Positions 18,684 to 63,484 of a DNA stretch of 64,000 nucleotides are shown here, one piece after another. Origin of the DNA: Squalus acanthias (lineage: Eukaryota); assembly GCA_030390025.1 (NCBI GenBank), contig CM059431.1, forward strand, positions 110,238,001 to 110,302,000. Reading direction: 5' to 3'. The notes under the pieces were generated by a model that was not told the origin of the DNA, ran no database searches, and saw only the letters and a list, made by a program, of their open reading frames with translations. Positions within the stretch are counted from its first letter, which is position 1. The number at the start of each line of letters is the position of its first letter. The translations under genes were made by a program, and so were the position numbers.

Positions 18684-20140
18684 TGATTTCTTTGTAAATC
18701 TGCTCCTCTATCTCCTTCCCACTATTTGGTGGCCTATAAAATACACCAAGTAGCGTAAGAGCTCCTTTATTGTTTCTTGACTCCAACCAAATAGATTCTG
18801 TCTTTCACTTCTCAAGGACATTTTCTCTTTCTAGCGCTGCAATATTTTCCTTAATCAAAACTGCCATCTCTCCTCCTTTTTTTTTCCTTCCCTATCTTTC
18901 CTGAATACCTTGAACCCAGGAATATCAAGCATCCAATCCGCCCCTTTTTTGAGCCAGATCTCAGTTATTGCCACTACATCATATTCCCATGTGGCTATTT
19001 GCGCCTGTAGCTCACCAACCTTATTAACCACACTTTGTGCATTTACACACATGCACTCCAAACCTAACTTAGACTTCTTTGTATTTTCTATGATCCCACC
19101 TACTTCTGTATTATTTCTAACTCTAACTGTCTCTCCCAGTCTTCTGTGAACCTTGTTTCTACTTTTTAATACTACATCCTGGTGCCCAACCCCCAGCCGA
19201 ATTAGTTTAAACCCTCCCCCTCAGCACGAGTGAACCTGCCCGCGAGGATATTGGTCCCAGCTCTGTTCAGGTGCAGCCTGTCCATCTTGAACAGGTCCCT
19301 CCTATCACAGAACTGATCCCAATGTCCCAGGAATCTGAAGTCCTCCCTCCTGCATCAGGTCTCTAGCCACGCATTAACCTGCCATATCCTTCTATTTCTA
19401 CTCTCACTAGCACGTGGCACTGGGAGTAATCCAGAGATTACTAGATTTGAGGTCCTACTTTTTAACTTCCTCCCTAGATCCTTAAACTCTGACTGCAGGA
19501 CCTCAACCCTTTTCCTTCCTATGTTGTTGGTTCCGACATGGACCACGACTTCTGGCTCTTCCTCTCCCCCCCGCAGAATGTTCTGCACCCTCTCCGTGAT
19601 GTCCCTTACCCTGGCACCAGTGAGGCAACATACCATACGGGTCTCATGTCAACAGTAGCAGAACTGCCTGTCTGTCCCCCTGACTATCGAATTCCCAATT
19701 ACTACTGCATTCCTACATTTTGCTGTATGCCCCCGTGCAGTCCTTTGCCTCACGGTGTCAGACTTGGGAATGCACTCCTTTGAGGTGTCATCACCCTTAC
19801 CGGCATTCAATGCTGAATATTGATTTGAGAGTGCGACACTCCTGGAGGATTCCTGCACTGCCTGCCTCTTCCTATCCTTCCATGCAGCCACGCACTTGCT
19901 ATTCTGAACTCTATCTGGCTGTGAGGTGACCACCTCCTGGAACCTGCGATCCAGGAGACATTCAGCTACCTGTAGGCCCTGCGGTGAATCCAGCTGCCCG
20001 TCAAGCTCAGAAACCCTCAGCGTGAGTTCGAGCAGCTGGAAGCTCGTCCTACAAACATGGGCCTCTGGGACACATGAAGCGTCCTGAAGTTTCCCACATG
20101 GTGCAGGAATTGCAGACTACAGGTCGCAGCTGTCCCTCCA
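18684..20140 (-). mobile_element. Decayed CR1 5' part (ORF1 esterase plus start of endonuclease)
   Basis: VVIGNSIVRG, MVCCLTGARVRD...HVGTN, CVNAQS...VAITEIWL and YRPPNS, with frameshifts. Confidence 0.85.
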
Positions 20141-57470: not shown

Positions 57471-58045
57471 GTACAAAGCCACACTCACCTTCATCCTGCT
57501 GTGCCACTCATCACATCCCCATCACTCTGTCTTCCCTACCCTACTCCTGCACATCCTTACTCACAACAACTTACCTTGCACCTCCACCCATCCCTCTGTC
57601 TCTATCTACATTATCACATCCCCATCTCACTAGCCACCCCTCAAACTCACCCTCATCCTAGTGCAATCATACCAACTAACAACGCACAAGGGTAGCCACT
57701 TGGGTGTTTTATTCAGTGTTCATGTCAAGTTTGTGATATCAAATATTGAAACCTTTATTTTCAACACTTTGCATTCTTGGACAGATTTGTGTGAACCTTT
57801 GGAAGTGGCTTAGTGAGTTGCAGTGAATGGTGAGACATAATGGTATCCCCCGCAATGGTGATGAGTGTGAAAGGAATGGCTTGGACATTATAGGGATGCT
57901 TTATGGTGTTGGTGTGAGGTGGTGCCAACCTGGTGCATCATGTGGCAGCCAGGGTGTACAGTGTCAAGTGAAGTAAATCTGGCCATGGTGAGGCCATCCC
58001 ATAAACTAAAACTAGAAAATTAAAAAGTAATATAAGGGTTAAGTC

Positions 58046-58993
58046 ATGGCAGTAGAGCTCGGACCTGTGTCATGCTCCTCCTGTAACATGTGGGAAATCA
58101 GGGACGCTTCCTGTGTCCCTGACAACCATGTGTGCGGGAAGTGTGTCCAGCTGCAGCTCATGTGGGACCGCATGACGGCCCTTGAGCTGCGGATGGACTC
58201 ACTTTGGAGCATCCACGATTCTGAGAGGGTTGTGGATAGCACATTTAGTGAGTTGGTCACACTGCAGGTTAAGGCCAGCGTAGATAGTACATGGGTGACC
58301 AAAAGGCAGAGCAAGGGCAGGAAGGTAGTGCAGAAATCCCCTGGGGTTGTCTCCCTTAGCAACAGGTTCACCGCCTTAGGTGCTGTTGTCGGGGGGGATG
58401 ACTCATCGGGGGAAGGCACCAGCAGCCAGGCTCATGGCACCATGACTGGCTCTGTTGCAAAGAAGGGAGGGAAAAAGAGTGGCAGGGCTATAGTAATAGG
58501 GGATTCGATTGTAAGGGGAATAGATAGGGGTTTCTGTGGTCGCGACCGAGACTCCAGGATGGTATGTTGCCTCCCTGGTGCAAGGGTCAAGGATGTCTCG
58601 GCGCGGGTGCAGAACATTCTGGAGGGGGAGGGGGAACAGCCAGTTGTCGTGATACATGTTGGTACCAACGACGTAGCTAAAAAAAGGGAAGAGGTCCTAC
58701 AAGTAGAATTTAGGGAGTTAGGAGCAAAGCTAAAAAGTAGGACCTCGAAGGTAGTAATCTCTGGATTACTACCAGTGCCACGTGCTAGTAACAGTACAAA
58801 GAACAGGATAGTTAGGCTAAATACGTGGCTTGAGCAGTGGTGTAAGAGGGAGGGTTTTAAATTTTTGAGGCATTGGAACCAGTTTTGTGGTAGGTGTGAC
58901 CTATACAAAAGGGACGGTCTACACCTGTGCAAAGATGGAACTGATGTTCTCGGGGTAATTTTTGATAAAGCAGTTCGGGAGCATTTAAACTAG
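58046..58993 (+). CDS. CR1 ORF1p: N-terminal zinc finger plus SGNH/GDSL esterase-like domain
   Basis: CSSC...CGKC zinc finger and esterase blocks IVIGDSIVR, LPGA, HVGTND and DGLHL. 315 aa with no internal stops. Confidence 0.93.
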   Translation: MAVELGPVSCSSCNMWEIRDASCVPDNHVCGKCVQLQLMWDRMTALELRMDSLWSIHDSERVVDSTFSELVTLQVKASVDSTWVTKRQSKGRKVVQKSPGVVSLSNRFTALGAVVGGDDSSGEGTSSQAHGTMTGSVAKKGGKKSGRAIVIGDSIVRGIDRGFCGRDRDSRMVCCLPGARVKDVSARVQNILEGEGEQPVVVIHVGTNDVAKKREEVLQVEFRELGAKLKSRTSKVVISGLLPVPRASNSTKNRIVRLNTWLEQWCKREGFKFLRHWNQFCGRCDLYKRDGLHLCKDGTDVLGVIFDKAVREHLN

Positions 58994-61926
58994 TATGGCA
59001 GGGGGCTAGAAACCTATGTAGTGAAATAGAGGAAAGTGAAAGGCAGACAGAAATAAATGTGAGGAACAAAAAACAAAGGGCCAAACTAATTCATAAAAAA
59101 TGTGAGCATAAAAAAAGCCTGAGGGTTTTATACCTTAATGCGAGAAGCATCAGGAACAAGATAGATGAATTAGCTGTGGAAATAGAGGTTAATAATTATG
59201 ATCTAATTGGGATTACGGAAACATGGTTGCAGGGTGAGCAGGGCTGGGAGCTTAACATACAGGGGTATTCAGTATTTAGGAAGGATCGACAAAAAAGAAA
59301 GGGAGGAGGGGTAGCATTGCTGGTAAAAGAGGGGATAAATGCAATTGAAAGGAAGGATATTAACTCAGTTAATACAGAATCTATATGGGTGGAGCTAAGA
59401 AATAGCGAGGGGCGAAAAACATTAATAGGAGTGGTATATAGGCCTCCAAATAGTAAAATAGAGGTTGGGGAGGGCATCACGAGGGAAATTAGAGAAGCGT
59501 GCAATAAGAGCACAGCTGTCATCATAGGTGACTTTAACTTACATATAGATTGGACTAGCCTAATCAGTAAAAATAATGAGGAGGAGGAATTCCTTGAGTG
59601 TTTAAGGGATGGTTATCTGGATCAATATGTCGAGGAACCAACTCGGGAACAGGCTATATTGGACTGGGTACTGTGCAATGAGAAGGGACTAATTAGTAAT
59701 CTTGTTGTACGGGGACCCTTGGGTCAGAGCGATCATAACATGATCGATTTCTCACTCGAAATGGAGAGCGAAGAAATTGACTCAGAGACTAAGGTCCTGA
59801 ATTTAAACAAAGGGAATTATGATGCCATTAGACGGGAACTGAGTAGGTCTGATTGGACAACGTTCCTGGGAGGACTGGAGGTAGATAAACAATGGCAAGC
59901 ATTTAAAGATAGAATGACAAAATTGCAAAAATTGTTTATACCAATCTGGCATAAAAGGAAATCTAAAAAGGTGACTCAACCGTGGGTAACAGGGGAAATT
60001 AGAGACAGCATAAAATCCAAAGATAGGGCGTATAAAATAGCCAAAAAAAGCGCCAGAGCGGAAGATTGGGAACAGTTTAAGATAGAGCAAAGAAGGACAA
60101 AGGGCTTAATCAAGAGGGGCAAAATAGCTTACGAAAGCAAGCTGGCGGAAAATATAAAAACTAACTCCAAAAGCTTTTATAAGTACATCAAGAGGAAAAG
60201 ACTGGTGAAAACCAAAGTTGGTCCATTGCAGTCAGATACGGGGGAATATATAACGGGAAATAAGGAAATGGCAGACCAACTAAATGCATACTTTGGGTCA
60301 GTCTTTACGAAGGAAGATACAAAAAACCTCCCTGGGATATCGGGAAAAATAGGGACATTGGCAAAGGAGGAACTGACGCAAATCAATATCTCTGAGGATA
60401 TGGTGTTAAGGAAGCTAAAGGGATTGAAGGCGGACAAATCCCTAGGGCCTGATAACATGCATCCTAGGGTACTGAAGGAGGTGGCCCTAGAGATAGCGGA
60501 TGCACTAAGTATGATTTTTCAGAATTCATTAGACTCGGGAACAGTGCCCATGGATTGGAGGGTAGCTAACGTTACCCCACTATTCAAAAAGGGGGGTAGG
60601 GAAAAAGCAGGTAATTACAGACCTGTAAGCCTTACATCAGTTGTGGGCAAAATGCTGGAGTCCATCATTAAGGATGAAATAGCGGAGCACTTAGCAAATG
60701 GGGACAGGATAGGACAGAGTCAACATGGATTTACAAAGGGTAAATCGTGCTTGACTAATCTATTGGAATTTTTTGAGGGAGTAACTGGTAAAATAGATGG
60801 GGGAGAGCCAGTAGATGTGGTGTACCTGGACTTCCAAAAGGCCTTCGACAAGGTCCCACATAAAAGATTAGCATGGAAAATTGAAGCTCATGGGATAAAG
60901 GGGAAAGTATTGACGTGGATAGAGAACTGGCTGTCAGATAGAAAACAGAGAGTTGGAATAAACGGCTCATTTTCTGAATGGCAGGCAGTAACAAGTGGGG
61001 TACCGCAGGGATCTGTCCTGGGTCCCCAGCTGTTCACAATTTATATTAATGACCTGGATCAGGGAGTCGGATGCAGCATTTCCAAATTTGCAGACGACAC
61101 TAAACTAGGAGGGGGGGTGGGCTCAGAGGAGGAGACCAGGAAGCTCCAGAGCGATTTGGACAGACTGGGTGATTGGGCGGATAAATGGCAGATGCACTAT
61201 AATGTGGACAAGTGCGAAGTTATCCACCTTGGGTGCAGGAACGGGAGGGCAAATTATTATTTAAATGGCAATAAATTGGGAGAGGGGGAAGTACAGAGAG
61301 ACCTGGGTGTTCTTGTACACCAGTCACTGAAGGCGAGCATGCAGGTGCAACAGGCGGTCAAGAAGGCAAACAGTATGCTGGCCTTCATAGCAAAAGGGTT
61401 GGAATACAGGAACAGGGATACCTTGCTGCAGCTGTACAGGGCACTGGTGAGACCACACCTCGAGTACTGTGTACAGTTTTGGTCGCCTCATCTGAGGAAA
61501 GATGTTCTTGCCATGGAGGGGGTGCAGCGGCGATTCACCAGGCTGATACCAGGAATGGCGGGATTGACCTATGAGGAGAGACTATGTAGTTTAGGGATGT
61601 ACACACTGGAGTTTAGAAGATTGAGAGGGGACCTCATAGAAATGTATAAAATTCTGACAGGTCTAGACAGACTAGATGCAGAAGGAATGTTTCCCTTGGC
61701 GGGTGAGAACAGAACTAGAGGACATAATTTAAGGATAAGGGCTAAACCATTTAGGACAGAAATGAGGGGGAATTTCTTCACTCAGAGGGTGGTGAACCTG
61801 TGGAACTCATTGCCACAGAGGGCAGTGTACGCCAGCTCATTAAATATATTTAAGAGGGAATTAGATATATTTCTACAGGCAAAAGGGGTTAAGGGTTACG
61901 GAGAGAAGGCGGGGACGGGATACTGA
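58969..61926 (+). CDS. CR1 ORF2p: APE endonuclease plus reverse transcriptase
   Basis: APE motifs YLNARS, GITETWL, YRPP, GDFN and SDH. RT motifs YRPVSLTS, YLDFQKAFDKV, GVPQGSVLGP and KFADDTK, and a C-terminal WNSLP. The frame is stop-free from 58969; the ORF track's start at 59059 is a GTG. Confidence 0.95.
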   Translation, partial: SSSGAFKLVWQGARNLCSEIEESERQTEINVRNKKQRAKLIHKKCEHKKSLRVLYLNARSIRNKIDELAVEIEVNNYDLIGITETWLQGEQGWELNIQGYSVFRKDRQKRKGGGVALLVKEGINAIERKDINSVNTESIWVELRNSEGRKTLIGVVYRPPNSKIEVGEGITREIREACNKSTAVIIGDFNLHIDWTSLISKNNEEEEFLECLRDGYLDQYVEEPTREQAILDWVLCNEKGLISNLVVRGPLGQSDHNMIDFSLEMESEEIDSETKVLNLNKGNYDAIRRELSRSDWTTFLGGLEVDKQWQAFKDRMTKLQKLFIPIWHKRKSKKVTQPWVTGEIRDSIKSKDRAYKIAKKSARAEDWEQFKIEQRRTKGLIKRGKIAYESKLAENIKTNSKSFYKYIKRKRLVKTKVGPLQSDTGEYITGNKEMADQLNAYFGSVFTKEDTKNLPGISGKIGTLAKEELTQINISEDMVLRKLKGLKADKSLGPDNMHPRVLKEVALEIADALSMIFQNSLDSGTVPMDWRVANVTPLFKKGGREKAGNYRPVSLTSVVGKMLESIIKDEIAEHLANGDRIGQSQHGFTKGKSCLTNLLEFFEGVTGKIDGGEPVDVVYLDFQKAFDKVPHKRLAWKIEAHGIKGKVLTWIENWLSDRKQRVGINGSFSEWQAVTSGVPQGSVLGPQLFTIYINDLDQGVGCSISKFADDTKLGGGVGSEEETRKLQSDLDRLGDWADKWQMHYNVDKCEVIHLGCRNGRANYYLNGNKLGEGEVQRDLGVLVHQSLKASMQVQQAVKKANSMLAFIAKGLEYRNRDTLLQLYRALVRPHLEYCVQFWSPHLRKDVLAMEGVQRRFTRLIPGMAGLTYEERLCSLGMYTLEFRRLRGDLIEMYKILTGLDRLDAEGMFPLAGENRTRGHNLRIRAKPFRTEMRGNFFTQRVVNLWNSLPQRAVYASSLNIFKRELDIFLQAKGVKGYGEKAGTGY

Positions 61927-63484
61927 ATTGGAGGATCAGCCATGATCTCATTAAATGGCGGAGCAGGCTCGAAGGGCCGGATGGCCTACTCCTGCTCCTA
62001 TCTTCTATGTATCTATGTATCCCTGGTGTCGCCCGGGCAGCATGTGGTCGGGTGCTGATGCCCTCTGTCCTGTGCATCATCAGTTGATTGCGGAGAAGGT
62101 TGGTGGTGTTGTTGGTGCTGCTGGTGTGTCTGGTGCTGCTGGTGTTGGGGCTGATTATGGTGGGATTTTTAGGACCAAGGTGAGACAGTATAAATGGTAC
62201 CCATGCTGATGGAATAGATGGCAGGTGAAGTTGAGATGCCAGACGCGATCTGTCAATGGTGAGAGAGGTTGCTCCAATGAGGTGACACTGGATAGAGAGT
62301 TTGCTCCAAACACTTGCAAGCTGCATAAAGCTCAATCTGTCTTCCAAATGGAGTAAGCAACTGCTTCTGCGCTTGGAAAGTGAACAGCTGTGAGATGGGA
62401 GCTTTTATAGCACATTTCAAGCTGTCAACTAATCAGCTGATTCAATAGCCATTCAACTCCCGCCTCAGGTTAACAGACGTGGTCCACGAGCTGCATGCAC
62501 TCTGTGGGCGAGCAGTTAAAGTGAAAAGGTAAGGTTAAAACCATTATTAAGGGTCTGTCAACAAGCCAATAATTGCTTTAATAAGGTCGCCCGCCTCTGC
62601 GGGTCGGGTCCGATCCAAAATCACAGACTTGCCATTGCGAAAGGCGTGTTGCGGTGGGATGACAGCGGGTTCCTAACCCGCTGTGAAAAAGATCAAATTT
62701 CCCACCCGACCCACCACCGATCCCGCCCGCTGACCCCCGAAAATTCCGGCCCAGGAAATTCTTTCCCTTGCTGCTAGACTATAATTAAAGGTGCAGTGCT
62801 GCCATTCTATTTGGGGCACAAAGGAACCGGCTTCACTTTGAATGTCGAGCTTACAAAGCAAGGACTAGCATCGGTGAATTGAAGTTCAGAGTTGCTCTTT
62901 TACCAGACCTGAAAATTCACTGGAGGAAAACCTAATGCTGGAAGAACTCTTAGAGCCAGTCTTAGTAAGTCTTGCTTCTCTGTTGCTCCCCTAATCTGTC
63001 TACAGTTGAAGATACAGCAGAAGGTAGAGGTAAAACAAAATAAAGTGAAAGGGAAGAAGGAAAAGTGGACTCGAACTTGTTTCTACTTTGTGGCTTTTTA
63101 TTGTAAGTTTTTAAAAAAAACGTAGTTTCTGGACACGACCGGCAAGGCTACAGATGTATGTCAATATTGAAAGACTTTTTAATGGGATCTGAGGTGATCT
63201 GTTTGAAATCTTTGCTCCTCAGATGAAGTAGCCACTCAGTTATAATGATCAAACGTGGGACCTTTCCAAATTGATCATAACTGAACTTTTTCGTAACTGG
63301 AAACCATATGATATTGGCATTGAGTTTCCCTTTAAGTAGGAGTGACTACTATGAATTTTTTTTAAAAATTGCAATGAGCTGAAACGTTTTCTGGATTGAA
63401 GGCCCTTTTCAGATTGTGGGTGCCCTTAAGAAACAAGAATAATTTAGCCTATCTATGATAGCGATTGTTTGCTGAGTTTAAATC

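Follow-up and report, generated by a model that had tools for sequence, protein, structure and literature searches.

How is the polymerase of a retrotransposon translated if its reading frame offers no AUG until the end of the first enzymatic domain? This question is raised by a long interspersed nuclear element (LINE) in a 64,000-nucleotide (nt) stretch of the genome of the dogfish Squalus acanthias (GenBank assembly GCA_030390025.1, contig CM059431.1, positions 110,238,001 to 110,302,000; hereafter the window, numbered from its first letter). The element occupies positions of about 58001-62018 on the forward strand, to which the coordinates below refer unless stated otherwise, and holds both open reading frames (ORFs) unbroken, as judged from ORF reading, domains and tail. 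Its domains and tail, together with its by-eye likeness to published consensus sequences labelled CR1, suggest that it is a vertebrate CR1 with an esterase ORF1. ORF1 (58046..58993) encodes a 315-amino-acid (aa) protein with a zinc-finger-like motif and an SGNH/GDSL esterase that ends in Leu-Asn-stop, and ORF2 follows in the −1 frame. Its endonuclease and reverse transcriptase are probably reached by a programmed −1 ribosomal frameshift at the junction of both ORFs.

Anatomy of the ORF1/ORF2 junction

ORF1 closes with the codons CAT TTA AAC TAG, in which the slippery heptamer U_UUA_AAC (TTTAAAC, 58984..58990) stands in register with ORF1 and is directly followed by the TAG stop (58991..58993), as an initial annotation of this DNA had described. 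The −1 frame is free of stops from 58969 to 61926 (985 codons) and is the frame of ORF2, again in agreement with that annotation; its last preceding stop lies at 58966-58968, and the five open codons ahead of the heptamer (58969..58983) include neither an ATG nor a near-cognate start. Counted from the heptamer, ORF2 comprises 980 codons (58984..61926) without stop or frameshift and matches the Pfam families PF03372, PF14529 and PF00078. A variable linker of about 49 codons leads from the heptamer to an apurinic/apyrimidinic endonuclease (APE) domain that starts at 59131 and is recognizable by the motifs YLNARS (59131), ITETW, IGDFN and LDWVL, followed by the reverse transcriptase (RT) at about 60595-61227, both placed by Pfam and motif positions. 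The claim that no ORF2 AUG precedes the Met of SDHNM at the end of the endonuclease domain holds, the first in-frame ATG being that at 59740..59742, past all of the APE motifs except the last. Another ATG at 58995, one base past the ORF1 stop, opens a 4-codon mini-ORF in the third frame (58995..59009) and cannot yield ORF2; the junction thus reads UAG-U-AUG and lacks the UAAUG arrangement typical of the LINE SART1. Tandem slippage on the heptamer would give a fusion protein with a computed length of 1293 aa, which matches the approximate value predicted before.

The same arrangement recurs in a second, decayed CR1 copy of the window (copy 2) on the reverse strand, whose junction GGT TTA AAC TAA (19190..19211) contains the heptamer at 19211-19205, the TAA stop at 19204-19202 and a run of G at 19194-19190. 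Here too, the −1 frame runs without a stop from the heptamer on into the endonuclease. Entry into this frame is therefore boxed in by a stop five codons before the heptamer in the intact element (copy 1) and three codons before it in copy 2, with no AUG in copy 1 until 59740. Both copies hence share two features of frameshift sites, namely an in-register heptamer and a −1 ORF that is open from the heptamer without a start of its own. Copy 2 has retained TTTAAAC at an ORF1 identity of 49%, with only six of 14 aligned Leu pairs using one and the same codon, the terminal Leu among them. TTTAAAC as such occurs often (the window has 12 per strand), and seven other in-frame words of the form X_XXY_YYZ are spread over the two ORFs, none of which opens a −1 frame of more than 48 codons. 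For a Leu-Asn end, the codon usage of the element itself gives T-TTA-AAC an expectation of about 0.016. It is the fixed position at the end of ORF1, not the heptamer itself, that exceeds chance, and the heptamer is present there at every readable junction.

Conservation of the heptamer among CR1 elements

Among 88 homologs of the ORF1 protein, 60 extend to the terminal motif, and 52 of these end in Leu-Asn. Sharks, rays and frogs are among the named sources of these proteins, and a chimaera protein ends in Leu-Asn-Tyr. The residue before the terminal Leu is variable, with 11 different ones among the 52. Residues with codons that are unable to end in U (Met, Trp, Glu, Gln and Lys) occur at this place in one of the 52 proteins, compared to 34 of 52 one place earlier and a background of 20%. 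Moreover, three database proteins fused in frame (P0036, P0074 and P0089) display F-K-L at the junction, and P0036 and P0089 run on without a stop into the endonuclease. According to the genetic code, Leu-Asn-stop in one frame and F-K-L in the other would together require T-TTA-AAY. A search for longer ORF1 relatives returned three proteins, including one true ORF1-ORF2 fusion. The first 154 residues of ORF2 gave at least 150 matches against 1.8 billion representatives; among the 51 matches listed with at least 35 residues before the endonuclease motif, one has F-K-L upstream and two others begin with x-G-D-G-N, and this search says little on the junction. None of nine candidates was confirmed when viral contigs were searched for the locus, and none of the distant SGNH matches (eight metagenome contigs and six genome contigs) was linked to an ORF2.

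The spelling of the junction was compared at the nucleotide level in CR1-group consensus rows from excerpts of the supplement of PMC13343379, the first 400 letters of each row being judged by eye. Of 87 plain TTTAAAC matches in this supplement, 22 were viewed, while 18 of 23 matches to TTTAAAC plus stop fall at an ORF1 end. The stop varies over the 18 junctions in which it is intact (TAG in 11, TAA in six and TGA in one), and two more junctions hold the heptamer with a damaged stop, which brings their number to 20. Judging from the row prefixes, these 20 rows presumably derive from sharks, rays, chimaera, bowfin, coelacanth, frog, lizard, two crocodylians and, with one row labelled Crack, a teleost. 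Non-slippery synonymous spellings, searched apart from TGA-stop and most AAT forms, were found at a CR1 ORF1 end in none of 37 matches, and the AAT spelling in none of seven. When junctions were reached independently of the heptamer, it was present in six of six found via upstream codons (among 21 of 27 matches listed), in nine of nine fully covered junctions found via G-run terms, and in five of five junctions among 88 consensus rows that were gone through in full; these three sets overlap. Part 39 of the supplement holds no junction row.

The comparison of junctions proposed in the initial annotation thus turned out in its favor: the synonymous heptamer positions are invariant in CR1 families of jawed vertebrates, the stop and the residue before Leu are variable, and ORF2 stays in −1 phase wherever intact sequence is readable. 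As far as a comparison of sequences can tell, the heptamer is conserved beyond coding needs, and the CR1 junction signal is real and deeply conserved. Exceptions may lie beyond the visible 400 letters of the consensus rows.

Some rows of the supplement deserve separate mention. Those of ScyCan_CR1-1b, ScyCan_CR1-14 and SquAca_CR1-1 start at or just past the heptamer, which may be an artefact of consensus building or the boundary of ORF1-less variants. In the dogfish families SquAca_CR1-3 and SquAca_CR1-18, TTTAAAC with a stop-like triplet is also found in the 5' untranslated region (UTR), upstream of ORF1. The ORF1 end and junction of the teleost row AldAff_Crack-2, labelled Crack, resemble those of amphibian or shark CR1, for which a mislabel or horizontal transfer is possible.

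Frameshifting weighed against other routes to ORF2

The anatomy and conservation of the junction make a programmed −1 frameshift that gives the 1293-aa fusion the probable explanation. Ribosomes would enter ORF1 at the ATG at 58046, and most would terminate at the UAG, setting free the 315-aa esterase protein. In a presumed minority, the tRNA-Leu on UUA and the tRNA-Asn on AAC would slip one base back and re-pair on UUU and AAA. The slipped ribosomes would bypass the stop and read the variable linker, the endonuclease and the RT, thus affording an ORF1-ORF2 fusion protein. U_UUA_AAC is listed among the heptamers most shift-prone on mammalian ribosomes (PMC5009743, cited here and below from excerpts). 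Of the junction peptides suggested by the initial annotation, the version with Phe for the Leu preceding Asn (EHFKLVWQG) would not be expected, as a slip at the P site only would put Lys after Leu.

More speculatively, ribosomes could be made to pause by the stop codon next to the heptamer in combination with a linear G-rich motif at +11, with no pseudoknot involved. This motif, GGGGG at 59001..59005, starts 11 nt past the heptamer and recurs at the same offset in copy 2. Inspection by eye revealed GGGGG exactly at +11 to +15 in six of the 20 consensus junctions, from chimaera to crocodile and usually as GGGGGATGGG, while 16 of the 20 contain a run of at least four G whose first letter lies between +4 and +14. 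It is through its spacing and conservation alone that the G-run qualifies as a candidate stimulator; it may also be kept by protein constraint on x-G-D-G in the −1 frame. A two-tier quadruplex is predicted at copy 2, not at copy 1, and G-quadruplexes are described to stimulate frameshifting in synthetic constructs (PMC5009743). [quoted passage not shown] The offset of this nsp2 signal equals that of the CR1 G-run; however, the PRRSV motif is rich in C, interacts with PCBP and the viral nsp1-beta, and promotes −2 and −1 shifts, whereas the CR1 motif is G-rich and a candidate only. Two other elements were considered and rejected, namely a hairpin just 5' of the heptamer (z-score of 0.07 against shuffles) and pairing of the G-run with distant sequence in the 3' UTR or ORF2, the best energy of which (−18.4 kcal/mol) was matched by 11 of 30 shuffles. 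Conceivably, esterase-endonuclease-RT fusions are made throughout vertebrate CR1 by a −1 frameshift that needs no RNA structure and whose pause results from the adjacent stop and the G-rich motif, with a host or element protein bound to the latter; such a protein-stimulated signal would have persisted from the time when cartilaginous and bony vertebrates parted. This extended scenario is tentative and, as a whole, doubtful.

Several observations weigh against a programmed frameshift. The pseudoknot or stem-loop that frameshift sites display 5-9 nt downstream was found neither by folding, nor by a simple stem scan, nor with Rfam. Four folds downstream of the heptamer contain no stable structure (z-scores of −0.14 to +0.34), just as the initial annotation had failed to identify a convincing one, the stem scan detected one weak 5-bp stem, and Rfam gave no match at gathering level; its sub-threshold matches comprise four microRNAs, none at the junction. 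A bare heptamer may shift only at a low rate, and of the longer G-rich motif, the window family retains no more than the five leading G. Furthermore, the conservation counts are not independent owing to the shared ancestry of the families, and just two of five hand-translated consensus rows are open from the heptamer to the endonuclease, while the other three meet a stop that probably comes from dropped columns in those rows. Among the homologous proteins, positions −6, −7 and −9 are likewise low in residues whose codons cannot end in U, which renders the test on the residue before Leu supportive, not decisive, and the homolog P0004 has Glu before Leu, so that its heptamer cannot start with U. 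Between copy 1 and copy 2, fourfold sites are still identical in 19 of 30 cases; the copies, though diverged, are hence not saturated. Finally, UAAUG with its AUG in the ORF2 frame occurs in three of the 18 intact-stop junctions (ScyCan-1a, SquAca-17a and SquAca-6c), and human L1 makes its ORF2 protein without the AUG of that ORF. The initial annotation had taken the missing AUG to preclude AUG reinitiation as the source of the endonuclease; this argument rules out an ordinary AUG restart, but does not exclude reinitiation as such.

Such a termination-reinitiation mechanism would involve a stop at the ORF1 end and a renewed start on the −1 codon that overlaps it (AUG in UAAUG families, a non-AUG codon in the others), which would generate a free ORF2 protein with the heptamer as part of the termination or restart signal. 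It has precedent in other APE LINEs, i. e. SART1 (UAAUG) and L1 (AUG-independent), the −1 overlap at the stop has the same geometry as UAAUG coupling, and, besides the three UAAUG families, several other shark junctions carry AUU or GUG at this place. Yet, at the overlap the window has GUA and other families have GGU, GCU, AGC, AGU, GAU, GGA or GAA, which are mostly not start codons, and the match of all three synonymous positions to a tandem-slippage heptamer would be left unexplained. UGGGA, the motif of the termination upstream ribosomal binding site (TURBS) of caliciviruses, is absent in the 120 nt upstream of the copy 1 junction, while copy 2 has three. Reinitiation, the main rival of a frameshift, is thus regarded as rather unlikely, and both processes could coexist in UAAUG families. 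Still less probable is a start of ORF2 at a near-cognate linker codon such as GTG at 59059, reached by scanning or internal entry, with Leu-Asn-stop being kept for the structure of the esterase only. Nine near-cognate codons are found in the ORF2 frame from 59026 to 59122, the linker varies freely in length and sequence among relatives, and, in the ORF1 alignment, Leu-Asn closes the helix region of the esterase. However, constraint on the protein would not hold TTA, AAC and the preceding U constant; in both window copies as well as in P0036 and P0089, neither a stop nor a change of phase interrupts the frame from the heptamer to the end of the linker; and copy 2 lacks the GTG. Related copies contain nine extra in-frame bases at 59058, which points to a small in-frame linker deletion in the window copy, and this 9-nt indel of the family, being in frame, likewise speaks against a start within the linker. 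A pile of read starts at 59059 coincides with the 9-nt insertion and was rejected as an artefact.

A transcript altered before translation, either by use of the AG of CTAG as a splice acceptor or by addition of a base at the heptamer by RNA polymerase, could also join the two frames. The window junction indeed has CTAG with its YAG trinucleotide, and in-frame fused forms occur in protein databases, but AG is missing in the TAA and TGA families. The region 58600-59400 was compared by alignment with two raw RNA runs and two contig sets, with 30 of 30 bins covered in all four and most aligned reads less than 90% alike. Five indel events are listed at a share of at least 5%: one contig has a −1 and a +1 that compensate each other, 9 nt are inserted at 59058 in two cases, and 3 nt are deleted in another. 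The frame is preserved by all of them, and none lies within 58936-59057. The five joints in the joint table come from contigs only, and one RNA run has a single backward joint listed, with three reads and away from the heptamer. These tables argue against splicing or polymerase slippage at the junction, no joint or indel being listed there in the two RNA runs, in which a donor upstream of 58600 would appear as loose ends only. None of the 40 substitution rows listed affects the heptamer, and this table was not used as evidence. An altered transcript therefore appears highly improbable, and a programmed frameshift is retained as the preferred explanation.

The element, related systems and implications

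The intact CR1 copy is flanked by a candidate 5-bp target-site duplication, ATCCC (left 57996..58000, right 62019-62023, identical bases), which is tentative because of its length of only 5 bp; longer duplications that would fit were not detected by an automatic scan. By direct reading, 45 nt of the 5' UTR (58001..58045) are left before the ORF1 ATG, and the copy hence looks 5'-shortened. With so little 5' UTR and yet unbroken ORFs, it looks like a young insertion minus its promoter region. The 3' UTR (61927..62021) ends, according to a repeat scan, in an 8-bp repeat tail consisting of 2.2 units of TCTATGTA at 62004-62021; such short tandem repeats in place of poly(A) are a CR1 feature. Just past the 3' end, a 9-bp tandem repeat with 5.4 copies is found at 62099-62147. 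The ORF1 remnant of copy 2 (19205..20092, reverse strand) was located by tblastn, contains stops and shares 49% aa identity with copy 1. In addition, more than 12 other CR1 ORF2 or 3' fragments are scattered over both strands at 993-52226, 33-82% identical and all broken or shortened.

The N-terminus of the ORF1 protein carries a zinc-finger-like C-x2-C-x16-C-x2-C motif, whose cysteines are conserved across the homolog alignment, and the esterase is detected by Pfam (PF13472, E 5e-11). ORF1 residues 149-304 match PDB 4C1B, a LINE ORF1-encoded protein (E 4e-30), namely that of zebrafish ZfL2-1, an element of the L2 clade. The named closest relatives of ORF1 come from sharks and rays, with a sawshark protein being 69% identical. 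A further match, P0009, which is 57% identical and ends in Leu-Asn, is named an SGNH hydrolase of Pseudomonas aeruginosa and lies on a 4-kb contig; this record is probably vertebrate DNA contamination.

The canonical CR1 LINEs of vertebrates described in excerpts of PMC13343379 likewise combine an esterase ORF1, an APE-RT ORF2, an 8-bp repeat tail and the heptamer-stop junction. The terms frameshift, overlap, start codon and translation do not appear in its main text, which leaves the production of ORF2 aside. A literature search, with the primary CR1 papers of 1997-2003 outside its reach, returned no proposal of a frameshift for CR1. The title of a paper by Haas from 1997 reportedly speaks of two closely spaced ORFs in CR1, and the early papers may have noted the ORF overlap already. 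Frameshifting in APE LINEs has a precedent in the non-LTR (long terminal repeat) elements TRE5-A and TRE3-A of Dictyostelium, which belong to another clade and host and have another ORF1, and for which a figure legend states that ORF2 needs a −1 frameshift (PMC5911963, excerpt). The ORF1a/1b junction of the coronavirus infectious bronchitis virus (IBV) uses the same U_UUA_AAC heptamer (PMC5009743). CR1 would share its logic with coronavirus ORF1a/1b and retroviral gag-pol, i. e. an abundant upstream protein and a rare polymerase fusion. At the coronaviral and retroviral sites, a pseudoknot or stem-loop that follows after a few bases is used. SART1 and mammalian L1 are bicistronic APE LINEs like CR1, but make a free ORF2 protein. 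In the excerpts covered, SART1 is described to use UAAUG stop-start coupling, while the translation of human L1 ORF2 is independent of its AUG (PMC4091050) and a spacer of 63 nt separates both L1 ORFs. In contrast, the CR1 of the window has no in-frame AUG at the junction and a conserved slippery heptamer.

The translation of LINE ORF2 is described as an open question in excerpts of PMC3894237, and the elements concerned are numerous: according to the partial sources consulted, CR1 ranks first in abundance among the repeats of the chicken genome, and CR1-group elements account for 22-34% of shark and ray genomes. As the studied LINE cases, L1 and SART1, use reinitiation, a frameshift in CR1 would differ from them. 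If it takes place, the active CR1 enzyme would bear the ORF1 esterase at its front, the annotated starts of CR1 ORF2 would be wrong, and engineered CR1 vectors would have to keep the junction. The CR1 junction may thus provide a short and testable frameshift signal that seemingly works without the usual pseudoknot.

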